NCBI GenBank assembly: GCA_043720655.1
Contig: JAYSSG010000091.1
Span: 1 to 30,822 of the forward strand
DNA length: 30,822 nucleotides
Direction: 5' to 3'
Origin: Candidatus Altimarinota bacterium
GTDB taxonomy: Bacteria; Patescibacteriota; Gracilibacteria; BD1-5; JAGOOR01
This document shows, one piece after another, positions 3,448 through 26,136 of this stretch (position 1 is the stretch's first letter; each line of letters begins with the position of its first letter). The notes below the pieces were generated by a model, which was not told where the DNA came from, searched no databases, and was given only the letters and a program-made list of their open reading frames with translations. The translations under genes were made by a program, and so were the position numbers.

Positions 3448-4806
3448 ATGACATCATCACAAGGACAAGAAAGAGCCATATCTTCGGCAATCAATACTTC
3501 TGAAGTAGCTCCAAATGCAGCCTCTGGTTTAGGTACTGTGGAAGCAAGCGATCGAGCGACACTTGAATTGAAAGGATCTCTAAAATCTCTTGGCCATGAG
3601 CCTGATAATGCTCCTGCACCTTCTGATGTTGCAGTAAAACCAACAGAGAACCCAAAAACAGAATTTGAAAAACAAAAACAAGAAACCCAAGGAGAATTGC
3701 AAGATATTATAAATGAAAGACAAAAACTTGCAGAAACCTGAAAACAGCTTGATACAAGAGAGGGTGAGATCAAAATACAACTTGAAATGCAGGCAAGAGA
3801 ATGAATAGAACGTTCTAAAGAAGCTAGAGCAGCTGTCAATGAAATCAGCAATCTTATTCCAGATTGAGCGCCAAATTCTCATAGAGACGCTCTGAAAAAA
3901 ACTCTTGAAACCCTGCCTGATATGATGACAGCAAAAGATGTAGCAGATTTTACAGAAAGAGCTCGTTGGGATGCTGCTAAAGCAAGTGTTTGAGACAAAG
4001 ATTTTGCAAATATGAGTCAGACAGAAAAAGATGTGGTCTCTGAAAGAGTGAAAAAGATGGGGGAAAATAATTCTTCAAATCCTGAAAGTGGTCATTGGGA
4101 TGCCGCCAAGGAATCAAGCGGCTTATCTCCAGATACAAAATGGGAGAATATGAGTCCTGTAGAACAAAAATTAGTACAAGAAAGATTTATGGAAGCGAAG
4201 AAAAAAGGAGATGTACCAGTTCCCGCTTCATCAGCTGCTGCGACAGTTTCAGAAGCAAATCTATGAGACGCACCAGTGGTGGCGCCAACAGTTGCTCCAC
4301 AAATATTTTCAGAGCCAACTGATACTTCTGAAGTAGCTCTAAATGCAGCACCCGATACTTCAACAAATACAATACAAATACCACGAACAGAAGGTCGTGC
4401 ACCTACCGTCGTTGGGAGATGAGTTTCGAGCTGAGACGCACGAGATGCAGAAACTCAAGCTTCTCCTGTGGATTGAAAGAATGATAATACGAACATTGAT
4501 ACATCTCTGTGATTTGATCGTATACAATGAAAAAAGCATTGATATCATACTGAACTTGATAAAAAATTATCTGACGGTTCAACTGTATCAGTGTATAATA
4601 ATAATGGTACAAGGTCCATAAATATTGGACCAAATATTCGCTTCGCTGATGATAATGCTTATAATTCTAATATTAATATCACCTTTAAAAGGGACGGGAA
4701 TATAAATGAAATTGTAGATACTAGAAATTGGAATCCTCTTACAGGTAATTCAAGGACTAAAATCTTAGAAGAATTGAAAAATATAGGTCTTACTCTCCCA
4801 AACTAA
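3448..4806 (+). CDS. Hypothetical protein, 452 aa, with internal repeats
   Basis: ORF-track pieces 3448-3741, 4012-4266 and 4591-4806 are one frame joined by TGA(Gly). Followed by a terminator. Confidence 0.85.
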
Positions 4807-22463: not shown

Positions 22464-24464
22464 TTATTTTTCTTCTTTTTTATGAAGATATTTTTCGATA
22501 TCATTTCGTATTTCGTATATTTTTGCAAGATCAGTCATGGAGGCGAGCTTTAGGTCAGGGATACCAGATTGTCGTACCCCGTACACCTCTCCTGGTCATC
22601 GTAATTCCATGTCAATTTCTGAGATTTCAAATCCATCATTTGTTTTCTCTAATGCCTTCAGTCTTTCGGAGTTATTTTTGTCTGTTAAGAGGTAACAGTA
22701 TGATTGCCATTCGCCACGTCCAACGCGTCCTCGAAATTGATGAAGTTGTGACAGTCAAAAACGGTGCGCATCTTCGATGCAGACGACCGTCGCTTGAGGA
22801 TTATCGATGCCTACTTCTATGACAGATGTAGCTGAGAGGATATCATACTTTTTATCCAGAAAATCCTGCATAATCGTATCTTTTTCTTCTGGTTTCATTT
22901 TTCCATGGAGTATTCCTATATTTCTATGAGGAAAAATCATGGCAAGTTTTTCTGCTGTTTCATGGACTGAGACTGCATCTATTTTTTCACTTTCATTTAC
23001 GAGAGGAGATATCCAATACACCTGGAACCCCATTTCTATTTGAGAATCAATCCATTTATAGGCTTCGTGTACATGGATTTCTGTGACAATTTTTGTCATG
23101 ACTTTTTTTCGTTCTGCAGGATATTCTCGAATGATGGAAATATCTTGATTTCCATAGAGAGCCATTGAGAGAGTTCTCGGTATTGGTGTGGCTGTCATCA
23201 TCAATACATGAGGTGCTATTCATACAGTTCACGAATTTTCCTGAGAGATTTGCTTTGAGACATATTCTGTGAGCTTTTCTCGCTGTTCGACGCCAAAACG
23301 ATGCTGTTCGTCGATGACGACATAGCTGAGTTTTTGAAATTCTACATCTTCCTGAATAATTGCATGAGTACCAACGATAATATGTATATTGCCATTTTTG
23401 AGTTCAGATTTTATAGCTGTTTTATCTTTTGTCTTGAGACTTCCGATAAGGAGCTTCGATGTGATATTGTGAGGTGCTAGAAAAGTCTCTAGTTTTTTCG
23501 CGATTTGTGTTGCGAGCAATGTGGTGGGAGCCATGTAGGCAATTTGTCATCCACCTCATTTGATCCAATGAAGCATAGAGAGGAAAGCAACAATTGTTTT
23601 CCCTGTTCATACATCGCCTTGCAAAAGTCGCTGCATACAAATGTCCTTCTCCATATCTTTGAGTACTTCGAAGAGAGTAATTTTTTGGTGACTGGTCAGT
23701 CAGAAGGGGAGTTCTGAAATCGCCTGTTTCATAAAATCCACATCGAGAGCCACACTCTCTACATGACCCAGGCTGGCATCCTGTATTATTTTTTTTCTCT
23801 GAATAGCACGATATTGCAGTTCAAAGAGTTCTTCATAAGCGAGTTCATGTTTTGCAGCCTCAAAGGCTTTGAGATTTTTAGGTGCATGGAGATTTTGAAT
23901 ATTTTGAATTCTCGGCGCATGTTTTTTCTCCTCTCGTGTATCTATTGGTAGGACTTCTGGAAGGAGTGAGAGATACGGAAAAAGAAGAGGGATTTTCTCT
24001 CGAAACCACTTTGTATTGATTCCTTGTAATTCTATATAAATAGGAAGATACGCCTGTCTCTCAGAGTCAAAAGGTTCTATATCGGGCTGAACGAATGTGA
24101 GCTTTCCATATTCATATTTTGGCTTGCCATGGATGATGATAGTATCGCCGATTTGAATTGGTTTCTTGAAAAAAGGCGTATGAAAGAAAACACATTCTGT
24201 GAGCATGCCATTGGTATCTGATATGACAAATTTTGTGAGATTTTTCTGATACTTTGTTTTTTCACGGAGGATATTGACGAGCGTGACCTTGATGGTGTTT
24301 TTCTCTTGTATATTCACATAGGCGAAACTCTCGAGAACAGTACTTGTGTTTTCCAGATCTCGGGGGAAAAATAGGAGCAGGTTCTCGACAGTCTCGATAC
24401 CACCGCGATGCAAGCGCTGGATATAACTGTCTGTAGTATGAAGGAGTGATTTCGTCAATTGCAT
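22464..24464 (-). CDS. recG: ATP-dependent DNA helicase RecG, 666 aa
   Basis: LLQGDVGTGKT (second G = TGA), MAPT, DEQHRFGV, MTATPIPR, RFGLSQLHQFRGRVGRG. Confidence 0.97.
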
Positions 24465-24515
24465 ACGATTTGTGTGTGGTAGGAAAATCAATAGAATTAT
24501 AGCGTAATTTTTTCT

Positions 24516-24980
24516 ATGACAATGAAAAAGACTCTTTCTTCTCCTGAATGCGATGATGACTACTACGCTCTTGAAAAAAAGCGCATTGCTGAAGAAACGA
24601 AAAAAGCGAATAGAATTCATGAACAAGACATAGAGTCTCACCTTACTGCGGTTATTCCATACTACGAAGAGGCTGATAAGGAAGAGGCTCGACTCCTGGT
24701 GTTACTTAATAATCTTCTTGTGAATCGCTTTGCTGAAATAGGGCTTGTCTATTGGAACATATTCCGCCATGCACCGATTGAAATTCGTGATTATGCTGAT
24801 ATGTTTTGAGATGATCTCGATACTTCTTCTGTTGAGAGGATTATTGCATTTTTGGAAAACAAAAAAATTGAATCCGAGAACCTTGTTGATATCTGATTTG
24901 ATGATCAGGCTATTGGGGATGGGTTTGGTGTTATTGGAGAAGAAATTGAAGATGAATCTCAAGAAGAGGAAAGAGAATAA
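24516..24980 (+). CDS. Hypothetical acidic protein, 154 aa
   Basis: Open to TAA 24980 with 2 TGA(Gly), followed by a terminator. Confidence 0.8.
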
Positions 24981-25009
24981 AAAATACCTACAAAATGTAG
25001 GTATTTTTT
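24979..25009. terminator. Bidirectional intrinsic terminator
   Basis: AAAAAATACCTACA-AAA-TGTAGGTATTTTTT. Confidence 0.85.
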
Positions 25010-25020
25010 ATATTTTAACA

Positions 25021-25128
25021 TGGTGGTGAGTGAGGGATTCCGTCGCTTCTCCGCCAGCGACCCGGCTCTCTCATTTTCGAAGTGACGAAAGTCACTTCTC
25101 ATACTCGATTCTCACCCCTCACTCATCC
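25021..25128. repeat. tRNA-Ser-derived inverted-repeat element
   Basis: 25021-25036 is identical to the tRNA 3' end at 25187-25202. The far end (25116-25127) is a near-perfect inverted copy. Two internal hairpins. Confidence 0.8.
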
Positions 25129-25143
25129 AGATAAAATTGCCAT

Positions 25144-25175
25144 AAAAAATCCCCTCGCTTTCGGAGGAGATTTTT
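25144..25175 (-). terminator. Intrinsic terminator of tRNA-Ser
   Basis: Minus strand AAAAATCTCCTC-CGAAAGC-GAGGGGATTTTTT just after the CCA end. Confidence 0.8.
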
Positions 25176-25186
25176 GATGTCATTCA

Positions 25187-25279
25187 TGGTGGTGAGTGAG
25201 GGGTTCGAACCCTCGCGGCGACTTTCGTCACCCTACAGGATTAGCAATCCCGCCCCTTCAACCACTTGGGTAACTCACC
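25187..25279 (-). tRNA. tRNA-Ser(GCT), 93 nt, CCA encoded
   Basis: Acceptor GGTGAGT/ACTCACC, D-loop AAGTGGTTGAAG, anticodon loop TTGCTAA, long variable arm with GAAA loop, T-loop TTCGAAC. Confidence 0.96.
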
Positions 25280-25318: not shown

Positions 25319-25476
25319 ATTTTTATTGTAAACAGGCGCTCTGATTCTTTCCATAAAAGGGTGGCTATTTCTTTTCAAGAAGCTTTTTCAGAAAGAAAAA
25401 CAAAATTTCTCTTATAAAAATTGACTTATTAGAAGTATCGCTATAATTCCCGCAATCTATTTACTTTCCTTTTTGT

Positions 25477-26136
25477 ATGTCTCATTTGTCTCTCGCAGCT
25501 ACTGCACGTGATCCAAAAGCTGATCTCCGTGAAGTCCGTGGAACTGCCAATCGTGGCGGATCTGTGCCAGCTGTTGTTTATGGTAAAAAACTAGCAAGTG
25601 CACCAATTCTCGTTGATACATCCGATCTTTTACGTGTTTTCCGCGCATCAGGCTTCTCTCATATTATTGATCTCGTTCTTGATGGTAAAAAACACCCAGT
25701 ACTCATCCATGATGTCCAAGTACATCCAGTGAGTGGTGATTTTGTGCATGTTGATTTCTATGCGATTGTTGCTTCTGAAAAACTCCACGTAACGGTTCCA
25801 GTGAAGCTCATTGGTAATAGTCCAGCAGCTCGAGATGGTGCTATTATTGAGCATATTCTCCAGGATATTGAAGTAAAATGTCTTCCATCAGATATTCCGA
25901 CTGACATCGAAGTTGATATTTCTGCTCTTGTGAATCCAGGTGATATCATTCATATCTCTGATTTGACTCTTGATCGTACAAAAATTGAAATCCTTCATCA
26001 TGAAGATACTGATGCTATTGTACTTGCTTCTGCATTCCAAGAGTATGTCGAGGAGGTAGCAGCAGCTGAGGTAGAGGTCCTCACTGAAAAGAAAGAATGA
26101 GAAGGTGAAGCAGCCGAAGCTCCAAAAGCTGAATAA
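25477..26136 (+). CDS. rplY: 50S ribosomal protein L25 (long CTC form), 219 aa
   Basis: VPAVVYG, DVQVHPV, HVDFY, VPVKLIG. Acidic tail continues past TGA 26098 to TAA 26136. Confidence 0.95.

Follow-up and report, generated by a model that had tools for sequence, protein, structure and literature searches.

An RtT-type tRNA-linked repeat with a distinct core behind tRNA genes of Gracilibacteria

Introduction

In the account given in PMC8144298, tRNA-linked repeats (TLRs) have been known in Escherichia coli since 1978 (Egan & Landy 1978; Rudd 1999). They were described in E. coli, where 22 copies occupy ten loci, and copies behind 5S rRNA are found in Enterobacterales. Their hallmark is a 3′ end of 18–19 bp that is identical to the end of the upstream tRNA or rRNA (PMC8144298). 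The TLRs rrA, rrB and rrF, located behind 5S rRNA, lie between dual terminators, give read-through products and are processed near the repeated tail. Their RNAs bind Hfq and CsrA in vitro. Another member of the group is RtT RNA (rttR) from the tyrT-tyrV operon, which Rfam lists as RF00391. TLRs are without an established function, and an early claim that rtT acts in the stringent response was withdrawn (PMC8144298).

Here, we analyzed a stretch of 30,822 nt (the window) from a Candidatus Altimarinota bacterium of the Gracilibacteria (assembly GCA_043720655.1, contig JAYSSG010000091.1). The genome, referred to below as G000, comprises 790 kb in 91 contigs, with 39% GC. Behind its tRNA-Ser(GCT) gene, the window carries an RtT-type tRNA-linked repeat in a new lineage, with a distinct core. 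The class as such is already known and unexplained.

Several other described systems share features with this element. MITE- and REP-like repeats are likewise short, multi-copy and intergenic, with inverted ends and with presence or absence among close relatives. In contrast to them, the ends of the element are rewritten for each neighboring tRNA, its orientation and position are strict, and it has no known parent transposon. Inverted arm and tail and a duplicated tail are present; no autonomous partner was found among the transposase families looked at, a non-exhaustive set. tRNA-like acceptor mimics (minihelices, viral tRNA-like structures, the tmRNA domain) share with the element a stacked acceptor/T-type helix and a single-stranded NCCA, but the element has no D or anticodon equivalents, and most of its members pair the T-stem part only. 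In tRNA genes, the T-loop class of tyrosine-integrase att sites, reportedly set out by Williams in 2002, is said to have a duplicated segment that extends from the T loop to the CCA. Unlike such sites, the element has neither integrase nor cargo between its repeats, and one structured, covarying core occurs at many tRNA types.

Results

The tRNA-Ser(GCT) locus

The tRNA-Ser(GCT) gene was located by ARAGORN on the minus strand, at 25187–25279, with an encoded CCA and a score of 57.2 bits with the Rfam tRNA model. Upstream of it lies a promoter-like site, a weak consensus match only (25325–25353, minus strand). The gap between the tRNA and the element measures 55 nt and contains a terminator-like hairpin with a run of six U (25136–25184, minus strand; −17.9 kcal/mol).

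The last 16 nt of the tRNA, including the CCA, recur exactly at 25021–25036. This confirms the original prediction, made from the letters of the window, of an exact tail copy 166 bp away. These 16 nt match the window at these two places only, against 0.01 expected by chance. The full direct repeat has 22 nt with one mismatch and a spacing of 166 (25185–25206 and 25019–25040, both minus strand). Its first copy consists of the T-loop end, the 3′ strands of the T stem and the acceptor, and ACCA with two further nucleotides; its second copy forms the tail of the element.

The repeat unit spans 25021–25131 on the minus strand, with model matches of 120.9 and 111.7 bits. It has a three-helix fold, which is closed by pairing of a 5′ arm with the tail. 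The inverted 12-nt arm that had been predicted, with a stem enclosing two hairpins, is present. The arm (25116–25127) is the complement of the T-stem and acceptor part of the tail and pairs with 25025–25036 over 12 bp, 11 of which are standard on the tRNA-sense strand. The odd pair is A·C on that strand and G·U on the plus strand, and this single non-Watson–Crick pair of the basal stem favors the strand opposite to tRNA sense.

After the arm comes a purine-rich junction with the family motif R-Y-GAGAAUC (25105–25115; AUGAGAA in E. coli RtT), and then the hairpin P2 (25079–25098), with 8 bp and a tetraloop, whose helix is conserved while its sequence is exchanged among copies. A conserved GAGAG junction follows, together with the 5′ strand of a 3-bp helix, S1, for which a pseudoknot with the S2 loop is possible (25062–25075). 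The last hairpin, S2 or P3 (25042–25061), has a conserved purine-rich loop. All of these features were assigned to the minus strand. On this tRNA-sense strand, the element folded with −45.8 kcal/mol (z = −4.0 against shuffles), and the plus strand reached z = −4.3. No promoter-like site was found on the minus strand before the element. Beyond the tail, a distal bidirectional terminator (24977–25011, both strands; −16.6 kcal/mol) also ends a convergent ORF on the plus strand (24516–24980).

Copies behind other tRNAs

Every tRNA of G000 was scanned for further copies of its own tail. The same layout was found behind tRNA-Tyr (contig C85) and tRNA-Leu(TAG) (contig C17), and the Ser, Tyr and Leu(TAG) elements had 82% identical cores and different tails. 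A covariance model, R1, was built from these three elements. It detected five copies in G000, behind Tyr, Leu(TAG), Ser(GCT), Gly(GCC) and Leu(GAG), with a core of ~90 nt. The degenerate copies among them abut tRNA-Gly(GCC) and follow tRNA-Leu(GAG), respectively. An identical tRNA-Leu(TAG) is present twice in G000, with the element at C17:1–72 and with a terminator only at C53:15983–16067. Contig C17 begins within the tRNA. Either the gene is present in two copies, or the metagenome bin combines strain variants that have and that lack the element.

Within the order, R1 matched 13 of 61 genomes (G000 counted), with up to 8 copies per genome. A same-strand tRNA was located within 400 nt upstream of 28 of the 33 matches examined in relatives. 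The test set beforehand was whether other tRNAs, too, have such structures next to them, and whether the ends of these agree with the tRNA in question. The outcome was clearly positive: in 21 of 28 element–tRNA pairs, the element ended with an exact 16–24-nt tail of the upstream tRNA. The remaining seven tails had one or two mismatches or were decayed. Altogether, 18 isoacceptors were linked to elements, belonging to Tyr, Ser, Gly, Leu, Gln, Val, Arg, Lys and Asn tRNAs. Orthologous copies behind tRNA-Val(TAC) in two genera had clearly related cores and tails differing at four positions; despite these differences, each tail agreed with its own tRNA. The suggestion of a tRNA-targeted repeat or tRNA-end mimic was thus right in spirit, and it is now extended to a multi-copy family whose tails match the local tRNAs.

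A phylum-wide search (R2; 150 other genomes, 24 candidates scored per genome) returned two weak matches and counts as a weak negative. Both matches showed the arm-AUGAGAA...GAAUCC-tail frame behind tRNA-Ser, with other cores. In Rfam scans, no family besides RtT matched the element over its full length.

The element abuts the tRNA in 10 of 28 copies. Long gaps occur in 18 copies; in 14 of these, tRNA and element are separated by a terminator-like hairpin and a U run, as in the window copy, and the block of tail and terminator is often repeated on either side of the core. Tandem units were found in the genomes G003, G053 and G055. A mini copy sits between tRNA-Tyr and tRNA-Leu, 11 nt ahead of the latter, and must therefore belong to the operon transcript. 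In two other genera, copies close 23S-5S-tRNA operons after tRNA-Val(TAC) (L015, G049:C6, and L016, G051:C11). Their position at rRNA-operon ends echoes that of E. coli TLRs ending rrn operons.

The 5′ arm

In at least nine informative copies, in which the tRNA has a G·U pair in its T stem, the arm is Watson–Crick complementary to the tail instead of repeating the tRNA 5′ strand. The arm is therefore kept, or made, to match the tail as its pairing partner. Covariation extends to the two bases that follow the arm and the T-loop-derived bases ahead of the tail (U-A in 13 copies, C-G in 10). Most arms pair over 5–8 bp; the window copy has the longest arm of the family and is the only full acceptor-plus-T minihelix. 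In some relatives, a true T-loop sequence follows the arm.

Fold, covariation and strand

Pairs were counted in an alignment of 29 distinct copies that had been fitted to the model, with S1 as the only helix outside the search model. Standard pairs occupied 92.9% of the cells, compared to 71.9% in shuffles, and both-sided changes were seen at 21 of 25 pairs. When the partners were slid by 1–3 columns, pairing collapsed to 31–45%. All eight pairs of P2 covary (97.8% paired), and its 8 bp persist through complete replacement of the sequence, of which there are at least three types, exchanged even between orthologs of G000 and G003. S2 had both-sided changes at five of six pairs (95.8% paired). 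In S1, three base pairs join G-N-C with G-N′-C across the 5′ strand of S2, and the middle pair occurs in four Watson–Crick types. An S1/S2 pseudoknot is therefore possible. Invariant purine-rich stretches separate the helices. As candidates for these junctions, K-turn and double T-loop motifs were compared by eye and set aside, as the fit of the AA-for-GA variants is not a clean one.

A preference for the plus strand had been proposed from the G-U pair and the GNRA loop. The G·U pair of the window copy is as described. Across the family, however, the tRNA-sense strand has 21 G·U against 10 A·C pairs (8 against 2 in the inner helices), which is a modest vote for this strand as the folded one. 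The NCCA end of the element also lies on the tRNA-sense strand, and most copies have a P2 loop other than GNRA; the GNRA loop is not conserved. The likeness of one hairpin to the variable arm of tRNA-Ser fared similarly. The 12-nt inverted match is real, but a derivation from the variable arm was not supported. The match is most likely coincidental, because the same hairpin sequence is found behind Tyr, Leu, Gln, Gly and Val tRNAs. Other copies linked to Ser(GCT) have hairpins unrelated to the variable arm of their own tRNA.

Orthologous copies were compared between G000 and G003. In the G003 ortholog of the window locus (L042, G003:C1) and in the Gly(GCC) copies of both genomes (L008 and L037), the arm and the S2 variant were kept and P2 was exchanged. 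The tail of L042, a Ser(GCT) copy, no longer fits its tRNA or its own arm. Such differences indicate mosaic evolution or gene conversion among copies, in addition to decay.

Comparison with E. coli tRNA-linked repeats

The Rfam RtT model (RF00391) found 18 sites in E. coli K-12. The copies checked there, behind Tyr, Pro, Lys and Ser tRNAs, each ended with the tail of their own tRNA and had AUGAGAA or AUUCGAA after the arm; both variants also occur in Gracilibacteria copies. With the window copy, RF00391 scored 27.2 bits, below its gathering threshold of 45 (E = 0.0016–0.008 in small searches). The alignment covered model positions 1–130 and matched the arm-AUGAGAA and GAAUCC-tail motifs, giving the shared frame of arm, AUGAGAA, insert, GAAUCC and tRNA tail. 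A genome-wide search of G000 with RF00391 gave no match at E ≤ 10, and a search of 54 kb from family loci gave none at E ≤ 1. In the opposite direction, R1 matched four copies of the E. coli tyrT locus (E = 2e-5 to 7e-4). Homology to E. coli RtT is not proven, because the score is below threshold and no match at E ≤ 1 was obtained in the 54 kb.

Both groups of elements are found directly 3′ of a tRNA or rRNA gene and on its strand, and their last ~18–24 nt equal the 3′ end of the upstream gene, including the CCA. Like the E. coli TLRs, the elements occur at many loci and in tandem arrays, with some copies between two terminators. In both, AUGAGAA or AUUCGAA comes after a 5′ arm that is paired to the T-stem segment of the tail, and GAAUCC precedes the tail. 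The window element agrees with the TLR definition in being downstream of a tRNA on the same strand, in the identity of its tail and in its presence at several loci, sometimes in tandem. The cores differ: two hairpins and a possible pseudoknot are found here, whereas E. coli TLRs have a longer, GC-rich and otherwise folded insert. The 12-bp acceptor-plus-T minihelix of the window copy also contrasts with about 7–8 bp in RtT, and the host genome here, about 1 Mb in size, belongs to the code-25 Gracilibacteria.

Presence, absence and recombination

Empty sites in relatives, which the original prediction had proposed to look for, were found. At Ser(GGA), G015 has the element and the sites of G000 and G003 are cleanly empty; the sequence 3′ of the element continues that 3′ of the tRNA. 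At Tyr, the element is present in G000, reduced to a 5′ remnant in G003 and absent from G015. Within this clade of three genomes, Leu(TAG) is the only site occupied throughout. As the unit is bounded by direct repeats, its precise loss would be easy, and empty sites are therefore no proof of insertion. Among congeners, 17 had a Phage_integrase match, with one tyrosine recombinase each (two in 2 of them), with or without elements.

Two tRNA-Gln(TTG) loci carry genes between repeats. In G000 (L004, contig C89:1–6200), the tRNA is located at 21–96, and a direct repeat of ~80 nt, consisting of its T arm, 3′ end and downstream terminator, is found 5.7 kb further on. The interval encodes a ferric-reductase/rubredoxin/FAD-NAD fusion, an ArsP-type permease, an ArsR regulator and an MFS transporter, without an integrase. 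It looks like an island without visible means of integration. In G003 (L064, G003:C2:152762–155918), two elements in tandem come after the tRNA, then an APH-family phosphotransferase gene, which is encoded on the opposite strand, and then a third element. The third element, 1.4 kb away, still has the exact tRNA-Gln tail, so that the cargo gene is bracketed by repeats.

Discussion

A probable structured RNA with a tRNA-like end

With some room for doubt, we think that the element is probably a structured non-coding RNA, read in the tRNA sense and ending in a tRNA-like NCCA. In the window, it would be transcribed by read-through of a leaky terminator after tRNA-Ser, and copies that abut a tRNA or lie within tRNA operons would be transcribed directly. 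The RNA would fold into a three-helix junction, in which pairing of arm and tail exposes a single-stranded NCCA, and the tRNA 3′-end machinery could then trim and protect it. For the 12-bp window copy, RNase P may cut at the 5′ side, too. The expected product is a stable small RNA, whose level would report read-through of a strongly expressed tRNA unit. Arrays and losses would arise through recombination between the direct tail repeats. In favor of this reading are the covarying helices, the G·U bias toward the tRNA strand, the copies that abut tRNAs or lie within their operons, and the read-through products of rrA, rrB and rrF in E. coli. Against it speak the terminator between tRNA-Ser and the element, which is a good one, the lack of a promoter-like site ahead of the element, and the odd pair in the basal stem of the window copy.

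Alternative readings

A role as RNA alone gives no reason for the match between the tail and the local tRNA. Together with the arrays, the cargo between tail copies and the swapping of modules, this match keeps a role at the DNA level alive, and the RNA and DNA-level readings are compatible, not exclusive. Taken by itself, a mobile or recombination element is rather unlikely in our view, though it deserves serious attention. It would be non-autonomous, with arm and tail serving like terminal repeats or as a folded att-like site; the arm–tail hairpin would reproduce the duplex of the tRNA-gene 3′ end, and any RNA made would be incidental. A host or phage recombinase would insert it at or next to T-loop/3′ ends of tRNAs, duplicating the tail. 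Such a mode fits the patchy occupancy, with only Leu(TAG) filled throughout G000, G003 and G015, as well as the clean filled and empty states at Ser(GGA) and the filled, remnant and empty states at Tyr. The duplicated segment, from T loop to CCA, corresponds to that of T-loop-type att sites, and the tandem arrays, the cargo between tail copies (the APH gene in G003, the 5.7-kb island in G000) and the exchange of the P2 module between orthologous copies point the same way. However, the number of tyrosine recombinases in the 17 congeners is unrelated to the presence of elements, no autonomous partner was seen, and empty sites can also stem from recombination between two direct tails. One core with different tRNA tails would be hard to produce for a single site-specific recombinase. 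In addition, E. coli and Gracilibacteria copies have conserved unpaired motifs in common, and the G·U asymmetry points to a transcribed strand. A guide-RNA-like reading, with a scaffold and a 3′ guide, can also be imagined, but we know of no TnpB- or IscB-type partner for E. coli TLRs.

The directly repeated tRNA 3′ end could in principle be the attL/attR remnant of a lost island at tRNA-Ser, one of the explanations offered at the outset, and a real island with such repeats does exist at tRNA-Gln on contig C89. We nevertheless regard a plain scar as scarcely credible, since the same covarying core of ~90 nt, without cargo inside, is found at 18 tRNA types in many genomes, and independent deletions would not leave identical boundaries. 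A decayed partial tRNA duplicate, i.e. a pseudo-tRNA with an expanded T loop, would account for an arm and tail that together equal fused acceptor and T stems, and for the true T-loop sequence in some relatives. It is very improbable: where the tail complement and the tRNA 5′ strand differ, the arm agrees with the former, the core is common to unrelated tRNAs, and ARAGORN and the Rfam tRNA model call only the real tRNA-Ser. We find it just as hard to believe that the functional product is the plus-strand (antisense) RNA, pairing for example with the 3′ end of tRNA-Ser or acting like a primer-binding site. The wobble pair and the GAAA loop of the window copy do fit the plus strand, which holds a perfect 16-nt complement of the tRNA-Ser 3′ end and has the z-score of −4.3. 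Against this stand the family-wide wobble counts, which favor the tRNA strand, the P2 loops, most of which are not GNRA, and the copies within tRNA operons, which are necessarily transcribed in the tRNA sense; bidirectional terminators also block the plus strand on both sides.

Tail matching and the wider family

Tiny Gracilibacteria genomes hold hardly any dispensable DNA. The presence of the TLR design in them argues for its selection or active propagation, and against a mere peculiarity of enteric tRNA operons. The Gracilibacteria copies also add comparative data beyond E. coli: they cover many tRNA types, covary strongly and show an arm that changes with the tail.

A more speculative idea, to which we give only an outside chance, is that the TLRs of E. 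coli, of Gracilibacteria and of other CPR bacteria form one ancient superfamily with a common arm-AUGAGAA...GAAUCC-tail frame, in which arm and tail are matched to a tRNA as a specific mimic of its 3′ end. Arm and tail would then stay matched to one tRNA because the element mimics the end of that tRNA. As an RNA, it might be a decoy or sensor for enzymes or toxins acting on the acceptor end of that tRNA; as a folded single strand, it might offer a copy of the tRNA-gene end for templated, recombinase-mediated homing. If true, this would provide a concrete, testable function for the 45-year-old TLR puzzle.

Neighboring genes and genetic code

Other genes of the window include a ribosomal protein L25/TL5 gene (25477–26136, plus strand) and a RecG ORF (22464–24641, minus strand). 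The ORF at 24516–24980 (plus strand) encodes 154 aa without a Pfam match and converges on the RecG ORF. It overlaps the start region of RecG, as called from the first GTG, by ~125 nt, and the true RecG start probably lies further downstream. A tRNA-Gly with the anticodon UCA was found on contig C46 of G000 (4149–4227). Since this tRNA is present and ORFs are long only if TGA is read as sense, G000 uses code 25 (Gracilibacteria/SR1).
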